Source: an uncultured Gammaproteobacteria bacterium
GTDB lineage: Bacteria; Pseudomonadota; Gammaproteobacteria; Steroidobacterales; Steroidobacteraceae
Length of the DNA: 64,000 bases
Assembly (NCBI GenBank): GCA_963717335.1
Contig: CAVQVZ010000009.1
Location: 7,063-71,062 of the forward strand
Reading direction: 5' to 3'
The notes beneath the pieces were generated by a model. That model ran no database searches and was not told where the DNA came from. It was given only the letters and a program-made list of their open reading frames with translations. Shown here piece after piece: positions 17,394 to 35,422 of the stretch. Position 1 is the stretch's first letter, and each line of letters opens with the position of its first letter. Both the position numbers and the translations under genes were made by a program.

Positions 17394-17606
17394 TCACTTG
17401 CGCCATGCGGTGTACCCAAAAAAGAACGCAGCTGTGATGCCGAGCTTAAATAGTATGCTCGTCCAATATGACCACGGCGCCTCAGACCGGCAGTACGAGC
17501 GCCATGCGCCTCTGGCCTCGCCCGTGTAAGCCTCATAAGCGCAGAAGCCAAGCAACCCAAGCCCAATCAGAATTTCAATCACTCGGTGAATGGTCGCGGC
17601 GGGCAT
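17394..17606 (-). CDS. small membrane protein; last cassette ORF, with no attC of its own
   Basis: ORF 17394..17639 starts inside attC-01 (MPAALMRSVR is attC-encoded). Trimmed to the ATG 4 nt after the R' box. No attC follows its stop. Confidence 0.4.
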   Translation of the reverse strand: MPAATIHRVIEILIGLGLLGFCAYEAYTGEARGAWRSYCRSEAPWSYWTSILFKLGITAAFFFGYTAWRK

Positions 17607-17609
17607 TCG

Positions 17610-17694
17610 TCTAACGCTCCGCATGAGCGCCGCGGGCACACATGCTTGAGCTTGGCAGTTTATGGTTCACACGGCGCTCGATACGGTTGTCAGG
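17610..17694 (-). repeat. attC-01 (family 1)
   Basis: Plus strand tctaacgctccgcatgagcgccgcgggcac...ggttgtcagg. R'' core TAAC>TGAC. Confidence 0.8.
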
Positions 17695-17708
17695 CTGCTG
17701 GCGCGCGG

Positions 17709-18077
17709 TTACGACTTTCGATCAAATGACACCACAATGAGTGTGGTACACATCGAAGCGCTGACCTGAAATTCCCAGTGCTTAACGAAATCTACAGCGG
17801 CTTGTGAAGCGCACTCGGCCGTACGGCTAGGGGTCATCGCAACGGAGGTGGCCACAATGTCGCTGACGCCTCCACTGTGATGAAGTGTTACCGCAAGTAC
17901 CACATGGCCCGAGACCGCTCCGGCGCTGGAGCAGTACCGATCAAGGAAGTCGCTGGACTTGCCCGTGTGTCCGGTCTGATAGTCATTGGCCTTACAGTGC
18001 GGTGTCTCAGCGAACGCTGAACCAGAAATCAGGCAGGCAATTCCAGCGCCATATATCGAGGCGAGACCTTTCTTCAT
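17709..18077 (-). CDS. secreted protein with TonB-C-terminal-like domain
   Basis: 122-aa ORF with a signal peptide; ...GHVVLAVTLHHSGGVSDIVATSV...AAVDFVKHWEF... resembles TonB_C. Confidence 0.45.
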   Translation of the reverse strand: MKKGLASIYGAGIACLISGSAFAETPHCKANDYQTGHTGKSSDFLDRYCSSAGAVSGHVVLAVTLHHSGGVSDIVATSVAMTPSRTAECASQAAVDFVKHWEFQVSASMCTTLIVVSFDRKS

Positions 18078-18098
18078 TGTGATTCCTCAGCTAAGCAG

Positions 18099-18187
18099 CC
18101 CAACGCTTGAACCGTGCGCGCCGCGGAGATCCACGCTTGAGCTTAGTAGTTTATGATTCACGCGAGCACTCCATGCGATTGCTAGAC
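18099..18187 (-). repeat. attC-02 (family 1, divergent)
   Basis: cccaacgcttgaaccgtgcgcgccgcgg...ccatgcgattgctagac. R'' TAAC>TAGC. Confidence 0.7.
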
Positions 18188-18196
18188 GCCCTTACG

Positions 18197-18553
18197 CTAT
18201 TGAGTAGGAAATTGGAATAGCTTTTGGCGAAGGAAGACTTCCGACGTTTCCACGCGTCCATCAGCAAAGTGAATTTGATACGGAACTCCAGTGAGCGAGG
18301 ACACCGAGGCGCAGTATCGGATAAAGTCATCGGCAGTCCTTACCCGCGTCCCGGCATGCTTCAATTTTAAACGCAGATGATCCGCAGCGGTCTTGGCGTC
18401 GTACGCGGTGCCGTTTCTAACGAACGTTGCGTTGCCGAGTGTTTCAATCGAAGTAATCAGGAAATTGATCTTTTGATCCTCGAGGGACGCCCGGCTACCG
18501 GCAAATCCAGGAGTAAAGGCGCCGGCCAATAATAGAACCCAGACACTGCGCAC
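18197..18553 (-). CDS. secreted DUF5329-like protein
   Basis: ORF 18197..18661 begins inside attC-03. Trimmed to GTG 18553 (MRSVWVLLLAGAFTPGFAG signal); ...AYDAKTAADHLRLKLKHAG...YQIHFADG... motif recalled from DUF5329. Confidence 0.5.
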   Translation of the reverse strand: MRSVWVLLLAGAFTPGFAGSRASLEDQKINFLITSIETLGNATFVRNGTAYDAKTAADHLRLKLKHAGTRVRTADDFIRYCASVSSLTGVPYQIHFADGRVETSEVFLRQKLFQFPTQ

Positions 18554-18571
18554 ACGGTAGGACCTTGGGCG

Positions 18572-18656
18572 TCTAACGCTCCGATGAGCGTCCTTGGCAC
18601 TCAGACCTGAACTTGGCAATTCGTCGTTCAAGCGGCGCTCCATGCGATTGTTAGAC
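18572..18656 (-). repeat. attC-03 (family 1, divergent)
   Basis: tctaacgctccgatgagcgtcc...gcggcgctccatgcgattgttaga. Confidence 0.8.
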
Positions 18657-18743
18657 ACCAAGTATTAACCACGTATAGAGGGCCGAGGATACAAGACTCA
18701 AGCAAGTTCTAATTGCGTGGAGAGCGCCCCATCTAATTTGGGG

Positions 18744-18787
18744 CCGACGGCTCCGCATGAGCGCCGAGCTCGATGCGGTTGTTAGGG
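18744..18787 (-). repeat. attC-04, internally deleted mini-attC
   Basis: ccgacggctccgcatgagcgcc-gagctcgatgcggttgttaggg. The two arms of family 1 are joined without the central segment, and the R' core is mutated. Confidence 0.6.
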
Positions 18788-18791
18788 CACA

Positions 18792-19172
18792 TTACTTATC
18801 CCCACTTCGCCGGGAACCGGTGCCGTTTAGGCGCCTTTGCGCCTGGCGATGTGCGGCGTAAAGAGTGAATGCGGATACTGCGGCAAAGGCTCCAATTGAC
18901 CAGCTGATCCCAATGGACCTAAGCCATACGTCACTTTGTGACTTCGCCCAAAGCACAAGTAGATAGCCGCAGATACAGAGGAGCCAAGGCGCCGGATTGA
19001 TGAGTATTGCGGCGTAGCCAGCACTCCGACTGGCAGTGTCGGGTGTCGAGAAGAAGTAAAAATCAACGATGCGAAGGGAATACAAGACACGGGCGATCCA
19101 CTTGACGGTGATTACGGCCAAAGCCATTCCTGCAAGTGCTGCGATGTTTCCGGTCATGAATGCGGTGGACAT
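18792..19172 (-). CDS. membrane protein, unknown function
   Basis: 126-aa ORF with 3-4 hydrophobic helices. Confidence 0.55.
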   Translation of the reverse strand: MSTAFMTGNIAALAGMALAVITVKWIARVLYSLRIVDFYFFSTPDTASRSAGYAAILINPAPWLLCICGYLLVLWAKSQSDVWLRSIGISWSIGAFAAVSAFTLYAAHRQAQRRLNGTGSRRSGDK

Positions 19173-19183
19173 ATACGATGTGC

Positions 19184-19305
19184 CCTAACGCTTAAGTTGA
19201 GTGGCCGGACACGCTGTTTGAATGAGCGCTGCGGGTGCACGCTGTCCCTGCGTGCACGGAGTGCACTGCCTACGCAGCACGGACCACTCGAGCACGTAGT
19301 TAGGT
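19184..19305 (-). repeat. attC-05 (family 4, about 122 bp)
   Basis: cctaacgcttaagttgagtggcc...gagcacgtagttagg. The stop codon of the MAPEG ORF lies in the R'' box. Confidence 0.8.
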
Positions 19306-19707
19306 GAGAACATATCGGACGTACGAATAGAGCAAGAAACAAGAGCATAAGAGGATTGTTGCAAAGGTCAGCGCCATGCCTGTGACCCGCAATCCGAACT
19401 TCTCGTCGGCTTGACTAACGCCAATAGCGTGCAGGAGCTGCCCTGCTACAAGGCACAGTCCGAGAGCATGAACGAGTTTTGGACTGGCACGTGCAGCCTC
19501 AACAAGGGAGATGAGCACAAGAGTCAACGGAACATATTCGGCGAAGTTTGCGTGAACCCGAATCGCCCGAAGCATCGTGGCGTCGCCAGCATCTCCAATG
19601 GCGATCTTCTGGCGACGACGAGTTCGAATGGTGCGAATGCTTAGCGCGACAAAGATCAGCGCAAGAATCGCCGCGTACAGTGACGTTATCAGCATGCGTG
19701 ATATCAC
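19300..19707 (-). CDS. MAPEG family membrane protein
   Basis: 135-aa ORF (GTG 19707 or ATG 19695); ...RAIRVHANFAEYVPL...LLHAIG... pattern. Confidence 0.7.
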   Translation of the reverse strand: MISRMLITSLYAAILALIFVALSIRTIRTRRRQKIAIGDAGDATMLRAIRVHANFAEYVPLTLVLISLVEAARASPKLVHALGLCLVAGQLLHAIGVSQADEKFGLRVTGMALTFATILLCSCFLLYSYVRYVLT

Positions 19708-19788
19708 CTAACGTTCCGCAGCAGCTCGCGGGAACTCACGCTTGAGCTTGTTAGTCTGTGGTTCACGTGCGCTCGTCGCGGTTTGAGG
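19707..19788 (-). repeat. attC-06 (family 1, R'' degenerate)
   Basis: cctaacgttccgcagcagctcgcggg...gctcgtcgcggtttgagg. Confidence 0.7.
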
Positions 19789-19804
19789 TGGCATTTATGC
19801 GTTA

Positions 19805-19888
19805 CCCAATTCTCCGCACGAGCGCCGCGGGCGCACACGCTCGAGCTGGTTAGTTTATGGTTCACGCGCGGCTCGATGCGGTAGTAGG
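19805..19888 (-). repeat. attC-07 (family 1, both cores degenerate)
   Basis: cccaattctccgcacgagcgccgcggg...ggctcgatgcggtagtagg. It lies only 16 bp from attC-06. Confidence 0.7.
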
Positions 19889-19935
19889 CATCGGCGGAAT
19901 AACGTAACCATGACACGCTCTGCCGACACGTGCAT

Positions 19936-20208
19936 CTAGGCCTGCCATAGTGTCCAAGCGCCAATGGCAATGAATCCGAGGCCCGCTGCATAGCTCAGAT
20001 GTCTTGGCTGGACGTGGTTTGCAAGTACCGCGCCAGCAAGCACACCAATTGCGGAGGTTGTGACAAGGGCCAACGAGGCTGCCAGAAAGACCGTGAGCAG
20101 CTTTGACCCTTCGCGCGACGCGAAAAGCAGCGTTGCCACTTGGGTTTTGTCTCCTAGCTCCGCCAGGAACACAGTGCCAAATACAGTTGCGATTAACTTC
20201 AGGTCCAT
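19936..20208 (-). CDS. single-domain UPF0016 (GDT1/TMEM165) family membrane protein
   Basis: ORF 19936..20268 starts in attC-08. Trimmed to MDLKLIATVF...; contains the E-x-G-D-K-T motif (AELGDKTQ). Confidence 0.75.
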   Translation of the reverse strand: MDLKLIATVFGTVFLAELGDKTQVATLLFASREGSKLLTVFLAASLALVTTSAIGVLAGAVLANHVQPRHLSYAAGLGFIAIGAWTLWQA

Positions 20209-20238
20209 CGTGTTCAATCCGTGTGGGGAACGAAGATG

Positions 20239-20324
20239 CCTAACGCTTCGCATGAGCGCCGCGGGCACTCAGGCTTAAGCTTGGTAATTCATAGTTCACG
20301 CGGCGCTCCATGCGGTTGTTAATC
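20239..20324 (-). repeat. attC-08 (family 1)
   Basis: cctaacgcttcgcatgagcgccgcgggcac...gctccatgcggttgttaat. Confidence 0.85.
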
Positions 20325-20332
20325 CTGCGATA

Positions 20333-20758
20333 TCAGGCAAGGCGCTGTCCACCACGATAGTGCACTGGCGAAAGTCTCCTAATCGAGTCGAATGCAGCTC
20401 TGTACGTGTCCACTTCCCACAGCCAAGCCTCCTGCACCTCGTACGTGCGGTTGTATAAGATCCACACGAGGAAATCCCACTCGTAGTTCTTCGCCTTTGG
20501 TACTAATGTAACGAAGCTACCTGGTTTTCCACTGGGCCGATTAGCCTTAACCTGATACCGAGCCTTGTTGAACGTGAAGTCATAACCCCTGCGTACGGCA
20601 GAACTTCCACGCATAGAAACCGCGTAATTCTCCAAATCAAATCCCACGAGGAGAGCGGCATCTAATTCAGACAACGCTGCGGTGATGTGCGGAGCATTCA
20701 CAAACGCCTGCTCCCACTCCAGGGCCACCTCGACTAGTTTCGCGCGCAGTGTATGCAC
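20333..20758 (-). CDS. hypothetical protein, possible PD-(D/E)xK nuclease fold
   Basis: 141-aa ORF (GTG start); ...SELDAALL...RRGYDFTFNKARYQVKAN... gives an E/D...D-x10-QxK arrangement. Confidence 0.5.
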   Translation of the reverse strand: MHTLRAKLVEVALEWEQAFVNAPHITAALSELDAALLVGFDLENYAVSMRGSSAVRRGYDFTFNKARYQVKANRPSGKPGSFVTLVPKAKNYEWDFLVWILYNRTYEVQEAWLWEVDTYRAAFDSIRRLSPVHYRGGQRLA

Positions 20759-20763
20759 GCAGG

Positions 20764-20849
20764 CCTAACGCTCCGCATGAGCGCCGCGGGCACCGACGCT
20801 TCGGGTTGGTGGTTTATCGTTCATGCGGCGCTCCATGCGGTTGTTAGGC
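20764..20849 (-). repeat. attC-09 (family 1)
   Basis: cctaacgctccgcatgagcgccgcgggcac...gctccatgcggttgttagg. Confidence 0.9.
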
Positions 20850-20923
20850 GGGGGCGAGCACGCCTGCTTCGCGTTGGGCGTCTCATTGCCACGAGAAGAG
20901 CACACTGTCGCCGAGGGCGCAAT

Positions 20924-21298
20924 TCATTTGAGATCCTTGAGCTCTGTAATAATCAAATGTATCGGGCTGGTACCGATGTTTTCCGTCCAATGGGTGATGG
21001 GATCACGGTAGATGACCGCTCCTGTTTTTAGCTCGCCATCAACGGAACTGCCATCAGCCATGTGGCTTCGGACCTTGCCTCCGGATATGACATAAATGAC
21101 ACAGGCGGGATGGGAGTGAACTTGCTCCTTCCGGCCAGGGGTCAGCATAGTCTCCAAGACGCGCACCGAAGCATTGTCGAGCTTCACTTGCACCGTCGTC
21201 GGGTTTGCGACAGCGGCATCTTGAGGCAGTGCTGTTCCGGAAGTCAGTAGCGCTAATACAACGCATCTGGCAGTCAACAGAACTGCGTGTGCTTTCAT
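20924..21298 (-). CDS. secreted cupin domain protein
   Basis: 124-aa ORF with a signal peptide; ...QVHSHPACVIYVISGG... Confidence 0.7.
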   Translation of the reverse strand: MKAHAVLLTARCVVLALLTSGTALPQDAAVANPTTVQVKLDNASVRVLETMLTPGRKEQVHSHPACVIYVISGGKVRSHMADGSSVDGELKTGAVIYRDPITHWTENIGTSPIHLIITELKDLK

Positions 21299-21326
21299 TT
21301 GGGCTCCTGGAACGCTATGGCTGCCG

Positions 21327-21411
21327 CCTAACGCTCCGCATGAGCGCCGCGGGCACTCGGGCTTGCGCTTCGTAGTTTATGGTTCACGCGGGCGCCATGC
21401 GGTTGTTAGGG
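21327..21411 (-). repeat. attC-10 (family 1)
   Basis: cctaacgctccgcatgagcgccgcgggcac...ggcgccatgcggttgttagg. Confidence 0.9.
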
Positions 21412-21939
21412 CGCACAAATCGTATCGTAATAAGGAACGAGAGCGCGGCCGTCATCGCCGTAAAAGTTATGGACCAAATGCTATAGATATATCCGCACCA
21501 TGCTTCGATGGGAATTCCCAACACGTATCCAGTAGGCTTAGGGATGCCGCCGGTGATTATGACCGGCCGCCACTGAGTGGGGGGCCAATGTCTAATGGCA
21601 CCGATCAATACCTCAGTAAGTCCCGCTAAGCCAGGCACTATCCAAACAGGCGTGGATCCCAAACGCCTACCAAACAAAAATGCCAGGGGTAAGCCACACT
21701 ACTGAGTCGATTAGCCAAATGGGATACGCGGCGATCGATAGAAGGTGATTCGCGATACTTCTTCCCGGGCCAAATGGCGATGCCCACAATAGCGTTGGTC
21801 CTAGTGCGGCCCACAATATTGGTCGAAGCAGATTGAGCCAAGAGTACTGGTTAAGAGGCGGATAAGGTCTGCCACTCAATGCGATTAACCTCCAAATCCC
21901 TAACAGGCAGGACAGGAATATTGCGGGGGTAGTAAACAC
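21384..21939 (-). CDS. membrane protein, either two overlapping ORFs (21667..21939, 21384..21677) or one frame-shifted gene
   Basis: The hydrophobic sequence continues across a frame change at the T-run near 21675-21685. The downstream ORF reads about 27 nt into attC-10. Confidence 0.45.
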
Positions 21940-21958
21940 TCAGGAGGCGTTCGTGCGA

Positions 21959-22042
21959 CCTAACGCTCCGCATGAGCGCCGCGGGCACTCATGCCTGAGC
22001 TTGGCACTTTACGGTTCACGCGGGCGCTGCATGCGGTTAGGC
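21959..22042 (-). repeat. attC-11 (family 1)
   Basis: cctaacgctccgcatgagcgccgcgggcac...gctgcatgcggttagg (3 nt shorter next to R''). Confidence 0.85.
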
Positions 22043-22351
22043 GTCTGCATATAGCTGTACCCCGTAGTGAACGCAGTGTCGGCGAGAGAAGCACTTCGGC
22101 AACGACTTACAGGAGAATCGCTTTAGGCATCGCGGGTACCGAAAGAAGAATGCCTGATCTGCCGTCATGGCAACCACAGTGGCCCAACACAGCAGCCCAA
22201 GGACGAGGAGCGTGGAAGCAACCTGACGTAATGCAGCAAATGTATTAAGCCCAAGGCCGATGCCAAACAGCGAAAGTGCCGCTGCCAGCGCCGCGATGCC
22301 CACCCGAGCCGTAATTCGGTGTCGCCGCCACTGTGCTGCGTAGGTGGACAT
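22037..22351 (-). CDS. membrane protein with Cys-rich C-terminus
   Basis: 104-aa ORF with two TM helices, then ...RYPRCLKRFSCKSLPKCFSRRHCVHYG... Confidence 0.5.
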   Translation of the reverse strand: MSTYAAQWRRHRITARVGIAALAAALSLFGIGLGLNTFAALRQVASTLLVLGLLCWATVVAMTADQAFFFRYPRCLKRFSCKSLPKCFSRRHCVHYGVQLYADA

Positions 22352-22355
22352 GACG

Positions 22356-22442
22356 CCTAACGAGCCGCATTAGCGCCGCAGGCACTCACGCCTGAGCTTT
22401 GGCAGTTTCTGGTTCATGCGGCGCTCGATGCAGTTGTTAGAG
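22356..22442 (-). repeat. attC-12 (family 1)
   Basis: cctaacgagccgcattagcgccgcaggcac...gctcgatgcagttgttaga. Confidence 0.85.
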
Positions 22443-22445
22443 GGC

Positions 22446-22923
22446 TTATTTGCGACCGGCTGTCTGGGCCCACCAGTAGAATCGACGAAACCCCCTGGCC
22501 CCCAAAATCAGCCAAAGAGCAATCGCGATCTGCGCGGCGTAATAAGCAAGCAAGTGCATTATTCCCGCCGTGTCGTCCAAGTGGGCGACCGCGCTATGTA
22601 GCATCAGTAAGTCGCGCGCGAGCCCCGGTATCGACGTTGAAAGTAACCAAAGCCCGATAAGCGCGCAGCCCATGGTAAGCCACTGGTCGGCCGTGGTGAG
22701 GGAAGAGGTCGACGTAACCGCTCGGGATGAAAGAAGCCTGCGCGCTATGGTCTGAGGGAAAAACCAGAGAACCAAGACCAGGAGGATCAGCAAAGGCAGA
22801 GATTAGGAGCGCGACCGGTACGTCACCTCTAGAGAAAAGCGACAGCGCGATAGTGCCGCCGTAGAGCGCAAGCCATATCGCAAATAGGCGAGTAGCGACG
22901 GCGATTATCTGATGAGGTGTCAC
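22446..22923 (-). pseudogene. membrane protein with one apparent frameshift
   Basis: ORF 22594..22923 (MTPHQIIAVATRLFAIWLALYGG...ALLISAF) continues as a hydrophobic helix in the frame of ORF 22446..22793 (LILLVLVLWFFPQ...). The shift is at about 22790-22795, next to a TTT run. Confidence 0.5.
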
Positions 22924-22932
22924 TCAGAGCCC

Positions 22933-23017
22933 TCTAACGCCTAAGTTGAGCGGCGAGCTGCAAACACAAAATCTTTGCCACTGTAGTCCCCCGGGTCCGC
23001 TCCAACGTAAGTTATAT
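22933..23017 (-). repeat. attC-13 (family-4-like arms, 85 bp)
   Basis: tctaacgcctaagttgagcggcg...gtccgctccaacgtaagttatat. Confidence 0.7.
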
Positions 23018-23028
23018 GACGGCAACGC

Positions 23029-23334
23029 CTACGGGCAGTCCTGGTAGATCGAACACACAAACAGAAGTCCGTAAATGACGAGCCATATCGACATGACGAA
23101 GCCACCAAGCACGCATAGCGCAAAGCGCACGTGAGAGATCTGCGAGATTTTCCATAGGAATGGTATTCCTAGCGCAGCGGAAACAACAATAGCGCAGTAG
23201 AGAAACAGAGTACTGGCCAAGCTTGGCATAGCCCTACAAATGGCAATGATCGCCGAGAACGCCGCGGTTGGGATGACAAATGCTCCTGCAATTAAGCCGA
23301 GGGTCCGCCAAAGCCGAGTACCCATTGTCGTCAT
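23029..23334 (-). CDS. membrane protein, unknown function
   Basis: 101-aa ORF with three hydrophobic helices. The ATG abuts the R' box of attC-14. Confidence 0.55.
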   Translation of the reverse strand: MTTMGTRLWRTLGLIAGAFVIPTAAFSAIIAICRAMPSLASTLFLYCAIVVSAALGIPFLWKISQISHVRFALCVLGGFVMSIWLVIYGLLFVCSIYQDCP

Positions 23335-23418
23335 CTAACGCTCCGCGTGAGCGCCGCGGGCACCCATGCTCGAACTTGGCGCTTTATGGTTCACGCGAGC
23401 GCTCGATGCGGTAGTTAT
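23334..23418 (-). repeat. attC-14 (family 1)
   Basis: tctaacgctccgcgtgagcgccgcgggcac...gctcgatgcggtagttat. Confidence 0.85.
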
Positions 23419-23453
23419 GCGGCGAGCCCTCGCCACAGTGCGCGTAGCTGACC

Positions 23454-23759
23454 TCAGTTTGTATAGTATTTGCATGAGGAGCCTTCGTGCCGCCACGCCA
23501 CGATCTTCCCTGCACTGTTCACGTCCCAGTAAATAATGCAGTCGCCTCCCTTCTCGACCCTTACTTTATAGGTAGTAAGCCCGCTCGAATTTGGTCCCTG
23601 CGCGTCCTCAATAAGCCTACCCGGAACCGCCGCGTAATCTGTCCAGTTGTCACCTATCCAAGAGTTGAGTTTCGTATCGAAGAACGTGCAGCCGTATGCT
23701 GCAACGGTCGCTACTACCAAAGCGACGCAGTGCGCACGCTTCAACAGATTAAGCCGCAT
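23454..23759 (-). CDS. lipoprotein, unknown function
   Basis: ORF 23454..23819 trimmed to MRLNLLKRAHCVALVVATVAAYGC (lipobox). Confidence 0.55.
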   Translation of the reverse strand: MRLNLLKRAHCVALVVATVAAYGCTFFDTKLNSWIGDNWTDYAAVPGRLIEDAQGPNSSGLTTYKVRVEKGGDCIIYWDVNSAGKIVAWRHEGSSCKYYTN

Positions 23760-23843
23760 AACGATCCGCATGAGCGCCGCGGGCACCCACGCTTGAGCTT
23801 GGCACTTTATGGTCCACACGGGCGCTCCATGCGGTTGTTAGGC
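23758..23843 (-). repeat. attC-15 (family 1)
   Basis: ataacgatccgcatgagcgccgcgggcac...gctccatgcggttgttagg. Confidence 0.85.
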
Positions 23844-23874
23844 GGCACTTGCATGCGATACCCCATGGCGAATC

Positions 23875-24207
23875 CTATAGCGAGTCCTGCATTGGCCAGA
23901 CTTCAACAACGCCATTTGCGATCGCGCAAGGCACTCCCGAAACCATTCGTATAGCGTCATCAAGCGTTGCGGCTTCGACCACAGCGAAACCAGCAACCGG
24001 AAGAGCCGCGCGCATATAAGCACCAGATTGCGTACGCACCCCGCCTGCTTGATGATTTCTCACTTGTACAGGCTCCCCAGCCACTCCCATCACCGCACCG
24101 GCTTTTACGAGCTTCGCATCTTGAGCATGAGCCTCCTCTCTCAATGACTTAGGCGTACTGTCGTAGCCCTCGCGGTTTCCATATCCGATGGTAAGGAACT
24201 TCGGCAT
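23875..24207 (-). CDS. YCII-related domain protein
   Basis: MPKFLTIGYGNREGYD...AGFAVVEAATLDDAIRM... matches the YciI family pattern. Confidence 0.7.
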   Translation of the reverse strand: MPKFLTIGYGNREGYDSTPKSLREEAHAQDAKLVKAGAVMGVAGEPVQVRNHQAGGVRTQSGAYMRAALPVAGFAVVEAATLDDAIRMVSGVPCAIANGVVEVWPMQDSL

Positions 24208-24243
24208 AAGCACCTCGCAATTGATTCGGTTATGGACAGGCCG

Positions 24244-24344
24244 CCTAACGCCTGAGCTTAGGCGCGCCGAGTGAGCGTAGCGAACGAGGGTATCCCGGCA
24301 TGCGTAGCAAATGCCGGGGCGACGCCTGGAGGGATCTGTTAGCC
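24244..24344 (-). repeat. attC-16 (family 2, about 100 bp)
   Basis: cctaacgcctgagcttaggcgcgccgagtgagcgtagcgaacgaggg...atgccggggcgacgcctggagggatctgttagc. Confidence 0.85.
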
Positions 24345-24348
24345 GTCA

Positions 24349-28282: not shown

Positions 28283-28291
28283 CGCTCCAAA

Positions 28292-28816: not shown

Positions 28817-28897
28817 GATGTGGCTCCTGATCTTTAGGAACAATGTGGTGAGGCCATTCTTCGCGAGGCCGATTTGTACGCCATAATTCCGGAGTGG

Positions 28898-28984
28898 TCT
28901 AACGCTCCGCATGAGCGCCGCGGGAACTCACGCTTGCGCTTGGTAGTTTATGGTTCAAACGCGTGCTCCATGCGGTTGTCAGGC
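28898..28984 (-). repeat. attC-24 (family 1)
   Basis: tctaacgctccgcatgagcgccgcgggaac...gctccatgcggttgtcagg. R'' TAAC>TGAC. Confidence 0.8.
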
Positions 28985-28985
28985 G

Positions 28986-29360
28986 TCATTGGGTGGAATG
29001 CATTCCTGTCACACGAACCAGCACTCGCGCCCACAGACCCGCCAATGGCAATCCAATAATTATCCCCAGTGAAGCGAAGAGCAGCCGGCCCTTCGCAGAG
29101 CATCGCCAAGGTGCACTCGGTGAGAGATGAGCGGCGCAGTTCGTCATGCCGAAAATGTAACCGACTGTAATTGTTACGGCCGGAACGAGTATGACTACAC
29201 TCACAATCAAAGCGAACACAAGCAACACCGGGTGTCTTCCACGCGCCGGGATAAGGGGCGACGCTAAGTTTCCGTCCGCGCGGCTGAATCGGCGTGACAC
29301 GTAGAGCCAGTACAACGCTACCGCGACCCAGAAGGTGACTATGGCGGCGAATTGAATCAT
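28986..29360 (-). CDS. membrane protein, unknown function
   Basis: ORF 28986..29402 trimmed to MIQFAAIVTFW...; four hydrophobic helices. Confidence 0.5.
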   Translation of the reverse strand: MIQFAAIVTFWVAVALYWLYVSRRFSRADGNLASPLIPARGRHPVLLVFALIVSVVILVPAVTITVGYIFGMTNCAAHLSPSAPWRCSAKGRLLFASLGIIIGLPLAGLWARVLVRVTGMHSTQ

Positions 29361-29364
29361 GACG

Positions 29365-29451
29365 ACTAACGCCTGAGCTGAGCGCGCCGCTCGTAAGCGC
29401 ACTGAAAGAGCACCTGTCCGTTCACGGCTGCGCTCCAGCGATTTGTTAGGC
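29365..29451 (-). repeat. attC-25 (family 3)
   Basis: actaacgcctgagctgagcgcgccgctcgtaagcgc...tcacggctgcgctccagcgatttgttagg. Confidence 0.85.
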
Positions 29452-29504
29452 GGCTCGCGCTGCCCGTCAACAGAACTGTCACGACATGAGCCCGACGCTC
29501 TCGG

Positions 29505-30212
29505 TCATTCCCGATTACACGCGCCGGGTGATTTCCAGGCGGAAGCGGTCCCTCTTTCCTGATTCGAATCATGGATTACGAGGGCAAACGCCCGCCGAAG
29601 TGCCGTACCTGTCACGTTTAGTTGCATTGGAATATTGGGTGGTACTGTCATTACCTCTCCGGTTCGAGCCATGCTAGTGCCAGCCGGTGTCTCCAGACAC
29701 TGCTCTCCCGCCAACACATACCAGCCTTCAGGGCCCGGGTGTGTATGCACCCTCGATTTATCGCCCGGACGCATGACAGCATATGAGAGAACCGCACTAT
29801 ACTTCTTGGCTAAAGGAAGCTGCAGTGGGCCGATTACTGCGATCACTTCGCCCCCACGCGGAGGGTCGTTCTTGGGGCCAAATTCAGAGAGCCACACTCG
29901 TCCATCTTCCTCCACAACAAGTCCCGTCGCGCTCTTAGCCGCATCTGCCGCTCTTTTGCTCTCAAACGTGCTGAGATGCCAGAAAACGGTCGGTTGGCTG
30001 AATTGGAGTCCCGCAACCGTTCCGACGTTGAAGCAGCCAAATTCGGGCCGCGTCTCGCCCGCCGACACGTCCACGCACGCCACTTCAGTCAAGGGCTCGT
30101 CGGCAGTGGTGCTGGGCACCTGAGCTTCCTGGTTCACGGCCGTCCCGACTTGCAAAGTCAGGAGCGACGATAAGACCATCCCGACGGTGACAATGATTAG
30201 AGTTTTCATCAT
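29505..30212 (-). CDS. secreted cupin domain protein
   Basis: 235-aa ORF with a signal peptide; ...RVHTHPGPEGWYVLAGEQCLETPAG... Confidence 0.7.
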   Translation of the reverse strand: MMKTLIIVTVGMVLSSLLTLQVGTAVNQEAQVPSTTADEPLTEVACVDVSAGETRPEFGCFNVGTVAGLQFSQPTVFWHLSTFESKRAADAAKSATGLVVEEDGRVWLSEFGPKNDPPRGGEVIAVIGPLQLPLAKKYSAVLSYAVMRPGDKSRVHTHPGPEGWYVLAGEQCLETPAGTSMARTGEVMTVPPNIPMQLNVTGTALRRAFALVIHDSNQERGTASAWKSPGACNRE

Positions 30213-30264
30213 GTCCGAGCCTCCGAAGGACGTTCGTACGCGCGATTTTGACTAATCAACGCCG

Positions 30265-30351
30265 CCTAACGCTCCGCATCAGCGCCGCAGGCACTCACGC
30301 TTGAGCTTGGTAGTTTATGGTTCACGCGTGCGCTCCATGCGGTTGTTAGGC
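30265..30351 (-). repeat. attC-26 (family 1)
   Basis: cctaacgctccgcatcagcgccgcaggcac...gctccatgcggttgttagg. Confidence 0.9.
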
Positions 30352-30356
30352 GTCAT

Positions 30357-30767
30357 TTAGGATCGTATGTGACCTAATGAGACCATCATCACAATTATCC
30401 ACCCGATTGCGGTGCCCCAAAAAACACGGACTGCCCATCTAAGATTGTCGGGCGTGCGATAAGCGCGTGCTAGCTCCGGGGCTCTTGCGTATCCACCAAA
30501 TCGCCTATGCACCCATATTGATATAGAGAGGCTCAAAATAATTAGGAACGTAACGGCCCGACTGCCGCCATTTATCCAGGCCAAAAGGTATGCAGGAAAT
30601 AAGACGGAGCCCGCTATTAGGACTACAGCACCAATCAACAGCAATAGCATTGTACTAATCTGAATCTCTGCGTCGGTACAGGCACTCTCCGGCTCACTGC
30701 GACTGGAGCGAGATAAATTCTTCGCATATAACCGAAGAAAAAGAGCGTCAACGGTGCGATTTAACAC
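30357..30767 (-). CDS. membrane protein, unknown function
   Basis: 136-aa ORF (GTG) with 3-4 TM helices. Confidence 0.5.
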   Translation of the reverse strand: MLNRTVDALFLRLYAKNLSRSSRSEPESACTDAEIQISTMLLLLIGAVVLIAGSVLFPAYLLAWINGGSRAVTFLIILSLSISIWVHRRFGGYARAPELARAYRTPDNLRWAVRVFWGTAIGWIIVMMVSLGHIRS

Positions 30768-30810
30768 AACGGGAAGGTGCTCGATTTGAGTAGAAATGCA
30801 CGGGATGACA

Positions 30811-30932
30811 CCTAACGCTTAAGTTGAGCGGCCCCAAGGCTGCCGCGTCCAGGCGCCGAGCGCCCACAATTGATCCCGCGCGCGAGGCGCATGTTCGGTG
30901 CTTTCATGGGCCGCTCGAACGCACTGTTAGGC
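30811..30932 (-). repeat. attC-27 (family 4, about 122 bp)
   Basis: cctaacgcttaagttgagcggcc...gggccgctcgaacgcactgttagg. Confidence 0.85.
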
Positions 30933-30933
30933 C

Positions 30934-31305
30934 TCATTTGGGCGTGCCGCGCATGAGCACCCAGCATCCTTTGCCGAGGAATGCACCACCAATTACTGCT
31001 GCGACTAGAGATGGTCCGAAAACGGCAATTGCCCCTAGCCCGGTGTCGGGAACGCGGTGCGCAAGAAAATATACCCAAATTATTGAGCCTCCGAATGCGG
31101 TGAGCGCCAAAGCACACCAACGAAGGGCAGAAGCAAGTGAAAAGTCACGCATATCATGTGGATCGGCCCGGGCCGAGGCGCCGCCCAGCCATACAACGCA
31201 ACCACCAATAACCACCGTGGCGAGCCCCTGGGTGGGGGCGACCCAAAGCGCTACAAGGCACACTGCAATGTACGCGATCCCCAAGATCTGCCACCAGCGA
31301 TTCAT
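30934..31305 (-). CDS. membrane protein, unknown function
   Basis: 123-aa ORF with four TM helices. Confidence 0.55.
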   Translation of the reverse strand: MNRWWQILGIAYIAVCLVALWVAPTQGLATVVIGGCVVWLGGASARADPHDMRDFSLASALRWCALALTAFGGSIIWVYFLAHRVPDTGLGAIAVFGPSLVAAVIGGAFLGKGCWVLMRGTPK

Positions 31306-31313
31306 TAATGAGG

Positions 31314-31399
31314 CCTAACGTTCCGCATGAGGGCCGCGGGCACTCATGCCTGAGCTTGGCAGTTTATGGTTCACGCGGCGCTCGACGCGGTAGTTAGAG
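31314..31399 (-). repeat. attC-28 (family 1)
   Basis: cctaacgttccgcatgagggccgcgggcac...gctcgacgcggtagttaga. Confidence 0.9.
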
Positions 31400-31803
31400 G
31401 GGAGCTTTCCCACCGCCCACGTCACAAGCGGTAAAGTCCCAATAAGCTTGAGTTGATCGAGCATGGTGACTACCTGATGTCGCACCGGGCTTTGCGCGAA
31501 TCCGGAGAAGGCCGAGTGTAGGTCTAAAAGAACTCCGAGGCAGGTCATGGCCAGTGCGACCGCGACGCCATGTCGCCCGTAGAGGAGTCGAAGTACGCAG
31601 GCAAAGGGTACCGACACAAGAAACACGGCCAGAGCATGGTGGAGAGACAGCCAAACTAGAATAGCGTGAACTCGGGACGAGAACATAGCATCCCACCACG
31701 GAGGGTCGAGTATTCCAATCGGAGAGGCAATGCCATAGACGAGCGAGATCTCATACAGCTCGAAGAGCACCAACGCCGCTATGATTAGAAGGGCAGTTCG
31801 CAT
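31315..31803 (-). CDS. membrane protein whose ORF runs through its whole attC
   Basis: 162-aa ORF. The last 28 or so codons (...NYRVERRVNHKLPSSGMSARGPHAER-stop) are encoded by attC-28, and the TAG lies in its R' box. Confidence 0.5.
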   Translation of the reverse strand: MRTALLIIAALVLFELYEISLVYGIASPIGILDPPWWDAMFSSRVHAILVWLSLHHALAVFLVSVPFACVLRLLYGRHGVAVALAMTCLGVLLDLHSAFSGFAQSPVRHQVVTMLDQLKLIGTLPLVTWAVGKLPSNYRVERRVNHKLPSSGMSARGPHAER

Positions 31804-31814
31804 GGGTGCTCCCC

Positions 31815-31900
31815 TCTAACGCTCCGCATGAGCGTCGCGGGCAATCACGCAAGAGCTTGGCACTTTATGGCTCACGCGGCGCTCGATGCGGTTGTTAGTG
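31815..31900 (-). repeat. attC-29 (family 1)
   Basis: tctaacgctccgcatgagcgtcgcgggcaa...gctcgatgcggttgttagt. Confidence 0.9.
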
Positions 31901-32149
31901 GACCAGCCTGTCGTAGTCTGCATGTGAGCCGATCCAGAACCAAACAATGCCGTCTTCCATTTCCTTACCGAGAACTCGGTATTGGTTTCCGACTCGCGCC
32001 GACCACAATGAACCCACCTTCTTGAAGTGCAGTGACGGATGGCGAGAGTCACTCTTGAGCAGTGCGAATTGCTTATCCGCTGCGGCTCGGATCTCAGCGG
32101 GCATGGATTGGTAGAGCGCCCAGAACTTGGCCGACGCGACATGCTTCAA
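31895..32149 (-). CDS. RelE/ParE-superfamily type II toxin
   Basis: 84-aa ORF; ...FALLKSDSRHPSLHFKKVGSLWSARVGNQYRVLG...IVWFWIGSHADYDRLV... The TTG start overlaps the antitoxin stop (TTGA). Its own stop lies in R'' of attC-29. Confidence 0.7.
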   Translation of the reverse strand: MKHVASAKFWALYQSMPAEIRAAADKQFALLKSDSRHPSLHFKKVGSLWSARVGNQYRVLGKEMEDGIVWFWIGSHADYDRLVH

Positions 32150-32346
32150 AGAGGTCGTGTCCGCCCTGCGGTGTAATCGGCCTGTGCCTCGGAGCTAAGC
32201 TTATCGAGTTTGCCGGATCGGGAGTCAGCCTCAATCTGGGCGTCCCAGCCCTTCCAATCTTGGTCCAGCATCCAATCCCGCAGCTCCGAAAATTCGTGCG
32301 CGGAGAGCTCACGGATCTGCTGTTCAATATGTTCAATCTTGCGCAT
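32146..32346 (-). CDS. type II antitoxin partner
   Basis: ORF 32146..32355 trimmed to MRKIEHIEQQIRELSAHEFSELRDWMLDQDWKGWDAQIEAD... A small acidic helical protein directly upstream of, and overlapping, the toxin gene. Confidence 0.6.
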   Translation of the reverse strand: MRKIEHIEQQIRELSAHEFSELRDWMLDQDWKGWDAQIEADSRSGKLDKLSSEAQADYTAGRTRPL

Positions 32347-32364
32347 GGCCGACACCTCTCAAGC

Positions 32365-32392
32365 AGTATACCGCGGAGCCCAATGCACCCAA
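32365..32392 (-). promoter_or_regulatory. candidate cassette-internal sigma70 promoter of the TA pair
   Basis: The minus strand reads TTGGGT-N16-TATACT, followed by GAGAGG 8 nt before ATG 32346. Confidence 0.4.
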
Positions 32393-32414
32393 AAACGCTC
32401 GTACTATGGGGTCC

Positions 32415-32501
32415 GCTAACGCTCCGCATGAGCGCCGCGGGCACTCACGCTTGAGCTTCGTAGTTTATGGTTCACGCGAGCACTAGATGCGGTTGTTAGG
32501 C
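32415..32501 (-). repeat. attC-30 (family 1)
   Basis: gctaacgctccgcatgagcgccgcgggcac...gcactagatgcggttgttagg. Confidence 0.9.
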
Positions 32502-32945
32502 GCCATATCGGCTCGTGCACCATGGCTCCCAGATACCACTTTCCTTCTTCAATATCGACATAGATGGTTTGCCATTCAAGAAGGAAATCAAAGCTCGCGA
32601 CAGCTCATCACTGGGAGTTGCCTCCGGACCAAAATTAAACGCTAGGGCGAATGAGCCTTGCGCCCGGGAGTCAACTTTCGAGCTGAAATTCAACGTTACC
32701 GTTTCATAGCGAACCCCTCGGATGGGGCTACATCCCTGAAACGAAAGGTGATACTTCCTTCCGAGCACGCTGAGGTCAATTGTGTCGACAACCCCGGATA
32801 TTAATAGGAATTCGGCGCTATCGTTTGAGGCGACAGTGACAGTGATGGTAACGGCGCCTGCTTCCGTCGGAGCAGGACCTATGGTTCCAAATGCCTGCGA
32901 GGCCAGAAGCAGCGCGGACATTAGAAAAAAGGAGCGATAAGGCAT
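32496..32945 (-). CDS. secreted hypothetical protein
   Basis: 149-aa ORF with a signal peptide (MPYRSFFLMSALLLASQAFG). Confidence 0.55.
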   Translation of the reverse strand: MPYRSFFLMSALLLASQAFGTIGPAPTEAGAVTITVTVASNDSAEFLLISGVVDTIDLSVLGRKYHLSFQGCSPIRGVRYETVTLNFSSKVDSRAQGSFALAFNFGPEATPSDELSRALISFLNGKPSMSILKKESGIWEPWCTSRYGA

Positions 32946-32950
32946 TGGCG

Positions 32951-33037
32951 CCTAACGCTCCGCATGAGCGCCGCCGGCACTCAGGCTTGAGCTTGGTAGT
33001 TTATTGGTCACGCGTGCGCTCGATGCGGTTGTTAGAA
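32951..33037 (-). repeat. attC-31 (family 1)
   Basis: cctaacgctccgcatgagcgccgccggcac...gctcgatgcggttgttaga. Confidence 0.9.
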
Positions 33038-33041
33038 GCCA

Positions 33042-33338
33042 CTACTTACACCATTGCTGTTCGCAAGGCACGCCGTCGTGATCCCCGTCCATCTTCACCC
33101 CAGGACAGGTCTTCAGAAAGTACCTCGCTTCGGTGCAGGAGGTCATCTGGGAGCAGAGCACGCGGCCATCGCACCTAAAGGCAGGCGCGTTTTGCGTGGC
33201 CTCAAACAGCGAGTTGACGTGTGGGGCGGCCTGACTCGCCGCCGGTGATTGTCCGCTGAGCTGCGAACGGGCGACGTAGATCTCGTAGCCTCTCCAAGCC
33301 AGGACGCCCACGATCAGAACAATGATGATTTGGCGCAT
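33042..33338 (-). CDS. excalibur calcium-binding domain protein
   Basis: 98-aa ORF with an N-terminal TM helix and C-terminal ...CTEARYFLKTCPGVKMDGDHDGVPCEQQWC... Confidence 0.75.
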   Translation of the reverse strand: MRQIIIVLIVGVLAWRGYEIYVARSQLSGQSPAASQAAPHVNSLFEATQNAPAFRCDGRVLCSQMTSCTEARYFLKTCPGVKMDGDHDGVPCEQQWCK

Positions 33339-33362
33339 TCAGGGCGATGGGGCTGCGTGGCT

Positions 33363-33448
33363 GCTAACGCTCCGCATGAGCGCCGCGCGCACTCACGCTT
33401 GAGCTTGGCACTTTATGTTCACGCGAGCGCTCCATGCGGTTGTTAGAC
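33363..33448 (-). repeat. attC-32 (family 1)
   Basis: gctaacgctccgcatgagcgccgcgcgcac...gctccatgcggttgttaga. Confidence 0.9.
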
Positions 33449-33754
33449 AGCAGGACCCGAATCCTTGCGGATACGGGTCCAGTCCAGATACGCGCTTAGG
33501 GCTGGCCACTGTGCGATTCTATTCCGTAGTGCATTGCGCTCTGCGATCAGCCAACCTGCAATTAGCGCGGCCCCGGCGATGATGCCTGGGTGAAACCCAT
33601 AAACAACGCCAAATACAGCGACAATTAAGAATACGCATCCCATTTCCACCAGGACGATCTCGAGACGGCGAGCGTGCTTTAGTCCATCTGCAGATTGGAG
33701 CTGTATCCAGCGGGCGAGCACTAGGCGGGTAGACGCTGGGATGACCTCAGTCAT
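33443..33754 (-). CDS. membrane protein, unknown function
   Basis: 103-aa ORF with two TM helices. The stop lies in R'' of attC-32. Confidence 0.55.
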   Translation of the reverse strand: MTEVIPASTRLVLARWIQLQSADGLKHARRLEIVLVEMGCVFLIVAVFGVVYGFHPGIIAGAALIAGWLIAERNALRNRIAQWPALSAYLDWTRIRKDSGPAV

Positions 33755-33758
33755 GCTG

Positions 33759-33859
33759 TCTAACGCTTGAGCTCAGGCGCGCCGAGCGAGCGCAGCGAAC
33801 GAGGGAACCTCGGCATGCGAAGCGAATGCCGGGGCGCGCGCTGGAGCGAGTTGTTAGGC
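33759..33859 (-). repeat. attC-33 (family 2)
   Basis: tctaacgcttgagctcaggcgcgccgagcgagcgcagcgaacgaggg...atgccggggcgcgcgctggagcgagttgttagg. Confidence 0.85.
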
Positions 33860-33869
33860 GTAGATTTAT

Positions 33870-34293
33870 TCAATGCACCGTGTACCTGTTATCCAGCGCA
33901 CGAAGCGATTCCACATGCCGGGAAGTAAGCTCTGCTAAGAGCATCGCCGATTCCATCGGGTATATGCGAGCCGTACTCGACCTGTTTGTTTTGCCGCTGG
34001 GAAAGCCGCGTCGAGTACGTGGTCACGATAGCGATATCCACGATTGTTCCATGGATCTGACACGACCAAGAACCAGGGTGTCGTTCGCTACCTTCGACAA
34101 GAGCCGCTGGTATATTTGATCGTGCGCGGCGTTGACCCGAGCGAGATGCGCCGAAGCGCACACGTTCATGCCCTTCTGATCCTTCGCAACTTTAAAACAG
34201 GCATCAGTTGCTGCTTTGTCTGTGGCGGAAGGCGCAGCCCCCATAACCGGTAAAGTAACAACTGCCAATAGGCAGAAAGAGCGCTGGCCGCAT
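33870..34293 (-). pseudogene. first cassette: DUF1311/LprI-like secreted protein with several frame breaks
   Basis: My own translation gives MRPALFLP (ATG 34293), then [57 protein letters not shown]...EQSWI (ORF 34023..34268), then YRDHVLDAAFPAAKQTG, EYGSHIPDG and MESAMLLAELTSRHVESLRAL-stop in changing frames. Confidence 0.45.
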
Positions 34294-34300
34294 AAATCTA

Positions 34301-34320
34301 CGCCTAACTACTAATAGGCG
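34301..34320 (-). other. attI core / first-cassette junction
   Basis: This is the last GTTAGG box (plus-strand cctaac 34303-34308) before intI, and it has no partner R'' arm. It is embedded in the palindrome cgcctaACTACTAAtaggcg. Confidence 0.6.
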
Positions 34321-34324
34321 ACCG

Positions 34325-34350
34325 AAGTGGCGCCTTATAAAGCGCCACTT
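34325..34350. promoter_or_regulatory. perfect 9-bp inverted repeat aagtggcgc-N8-gcgccactt between attI core and intI
   Basis: Read directly. There is no T-tract on either side, so it is not a typical intrinsic terminator; it is a candidate protein-binding site. Confidence 0.3.
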
Positions 34351-34459
34351 TGGGCGTATAACATGGTTGGGAATTTGTAACCACTTGCGCTTACTACAGC
34401 ACTGTCTAATTAGGGCGTCAACTGTATCCTCTGCATTATGCAACCTGTTCTTTTCTTCC
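34351..34459. promoter_or_regulatory. intI-attI intergenic region expected to carry divergent Pint and Pc promoters
   Basis: Assigned by position only. The best minus-strand candidate is weak: TTGACG (plus-strand cgtcaa 34416-34421)-N17-TGTAGT. Confidence 0.25.
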
Positions 34460-35422
34460 ATGGCCGAACCCCCGCGCCTCCTCGATCAGCTTCGTAACCA
34501 GGTCCGTCTTCGCCATTACAGCTATAAGACGGAGCAAGCGTACGTCGCATGGGTGCGTCGTTACATAGTCTTCCATAATCGCAGGCACCCAGCTTCGATG
34601 GGCGCTCGGGAAGTGGAGGGTTTCCTTTCCTACCTGGCCTCTGAGCGCAATGTGGCAGCGGCAACGCAGGCCCAGGCGCTGGCAGCCATTCTGTTCCTGT
34701 ACAAGGCCGTCCTAGGGACGGAATTGCCGTGGCTGGAGAACATCGTCAGGGCTACAAGACCGCGGCGCCTTCCGGTCGTACTCACCCCAACGGAAGCGCG
34801 CGCCGTCATCGGGCATATCGAGGGACCCCAGTGGCTGGTTGCTAACCTCTTATACGGCAGCGGCTTGCGGGTGCTCGAGGCACTGCGCCTGCGGGTAAAG
34901 GATGTCGACCTTCGGATCCAGCAATTGACGGTGCGGGATGGCAAGGGAGGCAAGGACCGAGTGACGATGGTGCCGGCCGCTCTGGTGGCACCCCTTACCG
35001 TACACCTGGCGCGGATCAGGGAACAGCACGAACTGGCCAAGGCCCGCGGATTTGGCGGCGTCGAATTGCCTTTTGCACTGGAACGAAAATATCCGCAGGC
35101 CCATCTCGAATGGGCGTGGCAGTATGTGTTTCCATCGGCGCAACCCTGCGCCGATCCGCGTTCTGGCGTTCGTCGCCGGCATCACTTGCGGGAAGCGACG
35201 GTGCAGCGGGCCGTACGTGCGGCGGCACGACGGGCGGGCATCATGCAGTCGGTCTCACCACACACCTTTCGCCATAGCTTTGCGACCCACCTTCTCGAGG
35301 CAGGCTATGACATCCGTACCGTCCAGGAGCTGCTCGGCCACAAGGATGTGTCAACGACGCAGATCTACACTCACGTCATGCAGAAGGGTGCGAATGCGGT
35401 GCGCAGCCCGCTGGACCGCTAA
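34460..35422 (+). CDS. intI: integron integrase (tyrosine recombinase IntI)
   Basis: ORF 34367..35422 trimmed to [11 protein letters not shown] (ATG 34460). Catalytic R ([10 protein letters not shown]), HxxR ([12 protein letters not shown]) and Y (TQIYTHV) are present, as is the integron-specific extra segment ...[39 protein letters not shown]... The frame is intact. Confidence 0.92.

Follow-up and report, generated by a model that had tools for sequence, protein, structure and literature searches.

A sedentary chromosomal integron, very probably complete, downstream of glmS in an uncultured gammaproteobacterium

Is the long run of short genes and palindromic repeats beside glmS in an uncultured gammaproteobacterium a complete integron, does it belong to the chromosome, and where does it end? 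The question is raised by a stretch of 64,000 nucleotides (contig CAVQVZ010000009.1, assembly GCA_963717335.1), called the window below and numbered from its first letter, in which a preliminary description had placed a large sedentary chromosomal integron (SCI) with an intact integrase gene intI, an attI site and 33 attC sites. We are highly confident that the element is indeed a complete and apparently intact SCI, immediately downstream of glmS. It is another example of a well-known kind, and the understanding of integrons is unchanged by it. Chromosomal integrons of large size are regarded as reservoirs of cassettes for the mobile resistance integrons, and most of the well-studied ones come from Vibrio; the present locus adds a well-resolved integron from an uncultured soil or freshwater lineage of Gammaproteobacteria. 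With an intact integrase, a defined attI, an attC family of its own (82-90 nt) and related genomes at hand, recombination assays and estimates of cassette turnover can be designed directly on it.

The integrase and the attC sites

The product of intI is a full-length integron integrase, and not a XerC or XerD protein. It covers positions 1-314 of the 315 in the TIGR02249 'integron integrase' profile at 466.6 bits (cutoff 265), whereas the models for XerC (TIGR02224, 155.2 bits against a cutoff of 335) and XerD (TIGR02225, 152.2 bits against 330) stay below their cutoffs, each with a match broken into two stretches; Pfam finds the Phage_integrase and SAM_4 domains. Residues 10-320 align with the crystallised VchIntIA (PDB 2a3v, E = 2.8e-90) with a single gap, one residue long, which lies outside the integron-specific region, so that the extra segment claimed for this protein is present. 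The catalytic residues read from this alignment are R137, K162, H268, R271, H294 and Y303. Also kept are the positions matching W219, P232, H240 and H241 of VchIntIA, which according to the 2006 structure paper reportedly contact extrahelical bases. The identity to IntI1, the class 1 integrase, is 55.7% across 98% of the protein, and every plasmid-borne match is less than 60% identical, which therefore places this integrase outside the mobile classes (IntI1-5). An exact-sequence look-up of the protein returned no record.

On the side of the array, direct-repeat analysis reveals a family of repeats of about 88 nt, whose copies lie 400-900 nt apart. A MAFFT alignment mixing three length classes of attC was poor and was rebuilt from the main family alone; its 25 copies have a mean column identity of 80%, and their consensus fold consists of an R stem (CTAAC/GTTAG), a spacer, a bulged L stem and a variable loop. 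A covariance model (CM) was built from these 25 copies and run over the whole window with filters off. Taken together, the CM, the boxes and the hairpins give exactly 33 attC-like sites, all of which lie within 17609-33859 on the minus strand (Table 1), in agreement with the number and the orientation given in the preliminary description. The array has a single orientation, facing away from intI, and its first site lies 443 nt from attI. The CM scores 28 of the 33 sites at 24.8-111 bits (E <1e-4), and at least 26 are close to the consensus (70 bits or more). A 29th site, attC 7, was scored in a run with default filters, three others (attC 17, 18 and 21) are weak at 9-15 bits, and attC 29 is recognised solely by its R'' and R' boxes and its hairpin. 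Every significant match of the model is on the minus strand within 15362-33862; read on the plus strand the same sites remain below 22 bits, and the rest of the 64-kb window does not exceed 14 bits.

The sites are 82-123 nt long, apart from one internally deleted copy of 46 nt (attC 30), and fall into a main family of 27 (82-90 nt, the deleted copy included), three sites of 102 nt (family B) and three of 86-123 nt (family C). The RYYYAAC...GTTRRRY ends ascribed to them are there; a search for exactly this pattern recovers only about ten sites and is too strict, because many deviate from it by one box base. The bare GTTRRRY heptamer occurs 90 times in the window against 75 expected, which is not a significant enrichment, and the evidence therefore comes from the repeat as a whole, with its structure and register, and not from the heptamer alone.

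The hairpin covaries strongly across loci. In an alignment of 67 sites from nine loci, 93.6% of the cells in the attC hairpin are paired, against 79.4% after shuffling, and 143 cells are compensatory, against 46; not one of 500 shuffles attains these figures, and when the partner columns are slid by 1-3 positions just 16-37% of cells remain paired. The sequence of the R-box helix is conserved and the L-box helices covary, which is the known signature of attC. Folded as DNA, the bottom strands (the plus strand of the window) of main-family sites are significantly stable, with z scores of -2.9 to -6.3, and show the R stem, the unpaired spacer, the bulged L stem and the variable loop.

attI, cassette turnover and cargo

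The locus was compared with five others from metagenome-assembled genomes (MAGs) of other species, L001 (CAVOVV010000006.1), L002, L003, L004 and L005, whose integrases are 75-87% identical to the one in the window. The alignment of all five with the window begins at 34301-34304 and extends to the right for 10 kb or more, with 76-85% of nucleotides identical, and this homology ends exactly at the attI crossover (34302-34308), beyond which they share only attC. There, adjoining the start of intI, the minus strand reads G|TTAGGC (34308-34302), so that the attI proposed earlier is found at the very point where synteny with the relatives breaks. The cassettes of these relatives are nearly all different from those of the window, with just one DUF5329 cassette and a fragment of 0.2 kb in common. 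As the cassettes near attI differ fully while the flanks have remained so similar, the cassettes have therefore turned over since the divergence of these genomes. Applied to other loci, the CM finds attC arrays upstream of intI in L001, L003, L005 and L014 (up to 115 bits in L001), and a single attC in the same position in L002, L004 and L006.

The right flank is made of housekeeping genes, all on the minus strand (glmS, glmU, atpCDGAHFEB, parB, parA and rsmG). The stop codons of intI and glmS are 26 nt apart, and the same intI-glmS junction is found in the five relatives. Neither transposases nor other families of mobility genes were seen in Pfam scans of the array, tail and flank. The three components of an integron are found here in canonical arrangement, namely an integron-specific tyrosine recombinase, attC sites near intI and an attI with a GTT crossover. 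An integron is considered sedentary if it has more than 19 attC sites or is present in all genomes of a species (Cury et al. 2016, PMC4889954), and this one has 33, plus two decayed copies. The array is also homogeneous, with only two minor families of three copies each beside the main one, and the integrase is neither essentially identical to any of IntI1-5 nor above the equivalog cutoffs of XerC and XerD. We consider the label of sedentary chromosomal integron to be justified.

The spacer between attI and intI contains blocks that are invariant in all six genomes compared, and the conserved motifs upstream of the crossover include GTGGTTAC...TTCCCAAC (34384-34366, minus strand), also invariant in the six. 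The same genomes conserve two hexamers facing the cassettes, TTGACG (34421-34416) and TGTAGT (34398-34393), separated by 17 nt, which we put forward, from their sequence and conservation, as the -35 and -10 elements of a candidate cassette promoter (Pc). A convincing LexA box (CTGT-N8-ACAG), looked for by eye only, was not seen in the spacer. Within attI there is also a near-perfect palindrome, GTGGCGCCTTATAAAGCGCCAC (34322-34350), located 15-40 nt from the crossover and partly kept by the relatives, which could be a binding site for IntI or for a regulator.

With the boundary of each cassette set at the G|TT of its R' box, the minus-strand ORF (open reading frame) starts no more than 30 nt from the crossover in 23 cassettes out of the 31 with an ORF; the stop codon and the R'' box overlap in seven, and lie within 14 nt of each other in most others. 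The cassette architecture noticed at the outset is therefore real. About 70% of the cassette ORFs belong to no Pfam family, many of them encoding small hydrophobic proteins. To call the cargo almost entirely uncharacterised would nevertheless be an overstatement, since 9 of the 31 ORF-bearing cassettes match a family at gathering score (Excalibur, ParE-like, two cupins, GNAT, HIT, GDT1, MAPEG and DUF5329), and three more have sub-threshold matches (cupin, YCII or FG-GAP). Cassette 5 carries a 66-aa antitoxin-like ORF upstream of a ParE-like toxin (31895-32149; PF24732 ParE_like, E = 8.7e-7). PADLOC identified no defence system, its only match being a generic HIT-domain hit to ThsC, and the Pfam scan of the cassettes found no recognised family of antibiotic-resistance determinants, no dedicated search for resistance genes having been made. 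A tblastn comparison of the cassette proteins with other integron loci totalling 1 Mb found almost no cassettes in common.

In composition the cargo stands apart from the core genome. The GC content is 0.56 in the cassette DNA (17615-34307) and 0.65 in the host flank (35423-64000), some 8-9 points apart, and the GC content at third codon positions (GC3) is 0.48-0.75 in the cassettes against 0.84 in the atp genes. The same offset in GC recurs in L001 and L003, and is smaller in L005 (0.62 against 0.65).

Table 1. Features of the locus in window coordinates (CM, bit score of the covariance model)
Feature	Coordinates	Strand	Remarks
intI, integron integrase	34460..35422	+	320 aa, intact; TIGR02249 match, 2a3v alignment, IntI1 identity
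Candidate cassette promoter Pc	34393..34421	-	hexamers conserved in 6 genomes
attI	34302..34384	-	relatives' homology starts at 34301-34304; upstream motifs invariant in 6 genomes
Cassette array	17615..34307	-	33 cassettes, 98-900 bp, two ORF-less (98 and 171 nt)
Toxin-antitoxin cassette (cassette 5)	31895..32354	-	start coordinate approximate
attC 1	33758..33859	-	102 nt, family B; CM 24.8; R'' GCCTAAC, R' GTTAGAC
attC 2	33362..33448	-	CM 105
attC 3	32950..33037	-	CM 104.8
attC 4	32414..32501	-	CM 105.3
attC 5	31814..31900	-	CM 94.5
attC 6	31313..31399	-	CM 97.8
attC 7	30810..30932	-	123 nt, family C; CM 31.8; long hairpin
attC 8	30264..30351	-	CM 111.1; bottom-strand DNA fold z = -2.9
attC 9	29364..29451	-	CM 72
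attC 10	28897..28984	-	CM 96.9
attC 11	28195..28282	-	CM 105.6
attC 12	27609..27696	-	CM 77.5
attC 13	26902..26989	-	CM 106.8; DNA fold z = -3.3
attC 14	26322..26408	-	CM 100.2
attC 15	25837..25918	-	82 nt; CM 74.8
attC 16	25399..25485	-	CM 105.8; DNA fold z = -6.3
attC 17	24832..24933	-	family B; CM 9.1; R' mutated (TTTAGCG); 80% identity to 24237-24346
attC 18	24243..24344	-	family B; CM 12.9; 82% identity to attC 1
attC 19	23756..23843	-	CM 101.7
attC 20	23333..23420	-	CM 98.7
attC 21	22932..23017	-	family C-like; CM 14.9; R' end common to attC 7 and 29 (repeat family D11)
attC 22	22355..22442	-	CM 94
attC 23	21958..22042	-	CM 95.6
attC 24	21326..21411	-	CM 89.7
attC 25	20763..20849	-	CM 98.4
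attC 26	20238..20324	-	CM 98.9
attC 27	19804..19890	-	CM 78.9; R' mutated (ATTGGGT)
attC 28	19706..19789	-	CM 48.9; directly after attC 27, giving the ORF-less 98-nt cassette
attC 29	19183..19302	-	120 nt, family C; no CM score; R'' ACCTAAC, R' GTTAGGG, long stem
attC 30	18742..18787	-	internally deleted remnant without clear R' box; CM 27.6
attC 31	18571..18656	-	CM 76.7; ORF-less 171-nt cassette
attC 32	18098..18187	-	CM 70.2
attC 33	17609..17695	-	CM 100.5; last well-formed site
attC 34	16052..16137	-	decayed, L boxes degraded; CM 35.1; fold z = +0.27, no better than shuffles
attC 35	15362..15448	-	decayed; CM 26.3; R''/L'' half kept, R' box lost
attC-free tail	2908..15361	mostly -	~20 small cassette-like genes (Pfam), ~12 kb

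Some single cassettes have unusual reading frames. The ORF of cassette 6 (31315-31803, minus strand) runs through its entire attC, and the longest ORF of cassette 32 (18197-18661, minus strand) begins within the preceding attC; the peptide stretches that attC encodes in the two are alike (…RVERRVNHKLPSSGMSARGPHAER and …RMERRLNDELPSSGLSAKDAHRS). In cassette 22 (22446-22923, minus strand) two ORFs overlap in different frames; read together, with a frameshift placed near 22790, they would give a single membrane protein of about 160 aa. Cassette 26 (20333-20758, minus strand) encodes a soluble protein of 141 aa outside any Pfam family, in which a D...QVK pattern, judged by eye, recalls the PD-(D/E)xK nucleases.

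The distal end and the attC-free tail

The array had been said to end at 17394, and on this point we disagree: 17394 is no natural end, as two decayed attC sites (attC 34 and 35) and an attC-free tail lie further left. The unit immediately beyond the last well-formed site (17614-16058, 1557 bp, closed by attC 34) contains two or three genes, among them a SnoaL-like and a YCII-like one, and is probably a fusion of two cassettes. Its YCII-like gene has a homologue, 64% identical, on the cassette side of the locus L042, where the attC family is a different one and the CM failed to resolve the attC sites around the homologue (that of c34b).

We searched the region from 2.5 to 17.7 kb for attC by a structural scan, by the CM with filters off and by nhmmer profiles of the 5' and 3' halves of attC, and none of these three methods found anything there above the noise of the housekeeping flank, except the decayed copies at 16.1 and 15.4 kb. 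A short stretch around 9260-9296 that looked by eye like an attC remnant was dropped (E = 20), and a weak CM match at 14864-14971 (10.4 bits) was rejected, being inside an ORF and without boxes.

The content of this tail is cassette-like. Its Pfam matches are GFA, MAPEG, SAM methyltransferase, GST, PEMT, cupin, AHSA1, GNAT and PaaI, and its composition (GC 0.57-0.58, GC3 0.52-0.73) is array-like, compared with a GC of 0.654 in the flank and a GC3 of 0.84 in core genes. The GFA gene adjoins the last decayed attC, and in L003 and L049 its homologues are bona fide cassettes. The part from 2908 to 7000 is collinear, at 70-79% nucleotide identity, with the locus L081, an attC-poor stretch of cassette-like genes located about 52 kb from intI on the contig of L001. 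This locus keeps one attC (41.5 bits) beside a DUF5329 gene, the homologue of which in the window is cassette 32. Reasoning from the established integron model, we lean slightly towards the view that the tail consists of old cassettes which would have lost their attC sites and would now be inherited vertically.

One may go further and imagine a gradient of fossilisation, in which proximal cassettes with intact attC sites turn over, the zone from 15362 to 19890 accumulates damaged sites and fused cassettes, and the tail has no attC left; the arguments for and against such a gradient seem to us evenly balanced. If it is real, this lineage would record how cassettes lose their mobility and become ordinary, vertically inherited genes of the chromosome, and the stepwise disappearance of attC with distance from intI could help to explain how genomes come to fix cassettes.

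Further left the sequence changes character. The homology to L081 ends at 2908, and the segment 1-2907 has a GC of 0.75-0.78, against 0.654 in the right flank, with coding remnants that are MFS-like (by eye), DUF3833 and SDR, the last shifting frame several times. Moreover, a Logan contig of 3.7 kb (ERR12040026) encodes PaaI and GNAT proteins identical to those of the tail and continues into different genes. The junction at 2908 may reflect either chimeric joining or a rearrangement.

Other readings and known integrons

Several observations weigh against a complete and intact SCI. The CM was made from the window's own repeats, so that its scores in the window are partly circular, and the independent support for the sites comes from the arrays of the relatives; three of the 33 sites have a damaged R' box or a deletion (attC 17, 27 and 30), and four are weak or unscored by the model. 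Rfam at gathering thresholds has no match anywhere in the window, which says nothing about attC, and a consensus sigma-70 promoter scan of the attI-intI spacer called none. Finally, assembly frameshifts may have made details of the ORFs, and even the order of cassettes, erroneous. The most radical alternative would be that REP-like (repetitive extragenic palindromic) repeats unrelated to integrons happen to lie beside a Xer-type recombinase; the silence of Rfam and the absence of enrichment of the bare heptamer could be quoted in its favour. We regard this reading as effectively refuted by the profile scores (152-155 bits with the Xer models for cutoffs around 330, against 466.6 bits for a cutoff of 265 with the integrase model), by the CM scan and the covariation, and by the register, the repeats with RYYYAAC/GTTRRRY ends being confined to the intI-distal side, in one orientation, one per short ORF. 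Very improbable, too, is a mobile integron, carried by a transposon or plasmid and assembled here by chance. Tn7-like elements can carry integrons, and the position directly downstream of glmS, the classical Tn7 attachment locus, would fit them; against this stand an integrase so distant from IntI1, the lack of mobility gene families in the Pfam scans of array, tail and flank, a short junction with glmS that is the same in five relatives, and 33 homogeneous attC sites.

The two remaining alternatives accept that the integron is real. The order and number of the cassettes, or the left end, might be a mosaic of strains produced by the assembly. The glmS gene (35449-37285, minus strand) is split by a frameshift around 35927-35952 into overlapping ORFs of 452 and 167 aa, which, because the gene is essential (its orthologue in L001 is one intact ORF of 611 aa), suggests that the assembly contains an indel error there; a frameshift is also apparent in cassette 22, and the GC-rich 2.9 kb left of 2908, with the frame changes of its SDR gene, and the Logan contig that leaves the window sequence after an identical PaaI point the same way. 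Such an artefact in the details is nevertheless unlikely, as the array is consistent in orientation and register throughout and five independent genomes bear out the junction on the right. Alternatively, recombination could have ceased, leaving a static, inherited block of genes with the architecture of an integron. Damage to several attC sites, the loss of fold in the decayed distal ones, a 12-kb tail without any attC, the collinearity of part of this tail with a relative at 70-79% identity, indicating vertical inheritance, and the failure of the consensus scan to call a promoter all agree with this idea. We think it quite unlikely, given that intI is intact with all its catalytic residues, that at least 26 attC sites are near the consensus, and that the attI-proximal cassettes are wholly different in five relatives with such similar flanks.

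If the SCI works as the established integron model predicts, IntI would recognise attC in the form of folded single-stranded hairpins and, recombining two attC sites (attC x attC) at the G|TT of their R' boxes, would cut out a cassette, and the circular cassette would re-enter by attI x attC recombination at the crossover 34308/34307. An inserted cassette would then adjoin the candidate promoter in the intI-attI spacer, which would be expected to read into the promoterless cassettes of the minus strand, and the ParE-type toxin-antitoxin cassette would probably help to stabilise the array. From intI outwards come 33 cassettes with a recognisable attC, two with a decayed one, and a tail that probably consists of old cassettes now fixed. 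The genes from rsmG through parAB and atp to glmUS are all on the minus strand and the GC skew is weakly negative, which together suggest a leftward replication fork; the bottom strands of attC (plus strand) would in that case be on the leading-strand template, as suggested by flank orientation and skew, and as is found in 25 of 30 SCIs (PMC5371416).

The closest relatives of the element are the integrons at the same locus in uncultured gammaproteobacterial MAGs (L001-L005), which share the site downstream of glmS, the conserved attI and the attC family, and differ in cassette content. Among characterised systems, the closest are the superintegron of Vibrio cholerae and the integrons of Xanthomonas. 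Like the former, the element is sedentary, its attC family is homogeneous, its cargo is for the most part unknown and includes a toxin-antitoxin cassette, and its integrase aligns end to end with VchIntIA, the integron-specific region included. It differs in host lineage, in chromosomal site, in an attC family (82-90 nt in its main form) unrelated in sequence to the V. cholerae repeat (VCR), and in size, V. cholerae having roughly 180 cassettes where this array has about 35. The integrons of Xanthomonas adjoin ilvD and often have a degraded intI, whereas the present one adjoins glmS and has an intact intI. The likeness to them is that both kinds occur in Gammaproteobacteria of environmental or plant-associated habit, at one set place in the chromosome; a recent report describes the Xanthomonas integrons as occupying a fixed chromosomal locus and co-evolving with their host (10.1101/2025.06.18.660453). 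With class 1 integrons (IntI1) the element shares the enzyme family and the attI/attC logic; unlike them, it is not on a transposon or plasmid, and has 33 homogeneous attC sites instead of a few heterogeneous ones.

Two further features of the flank may be added. The gene mnmG, expected beside rsmG, was not found on either strand. Between rsmG and a cytochrome c gene, the plus strand contains an ORF of 627 aa (48322-50205) that belongs to no Pfam family.

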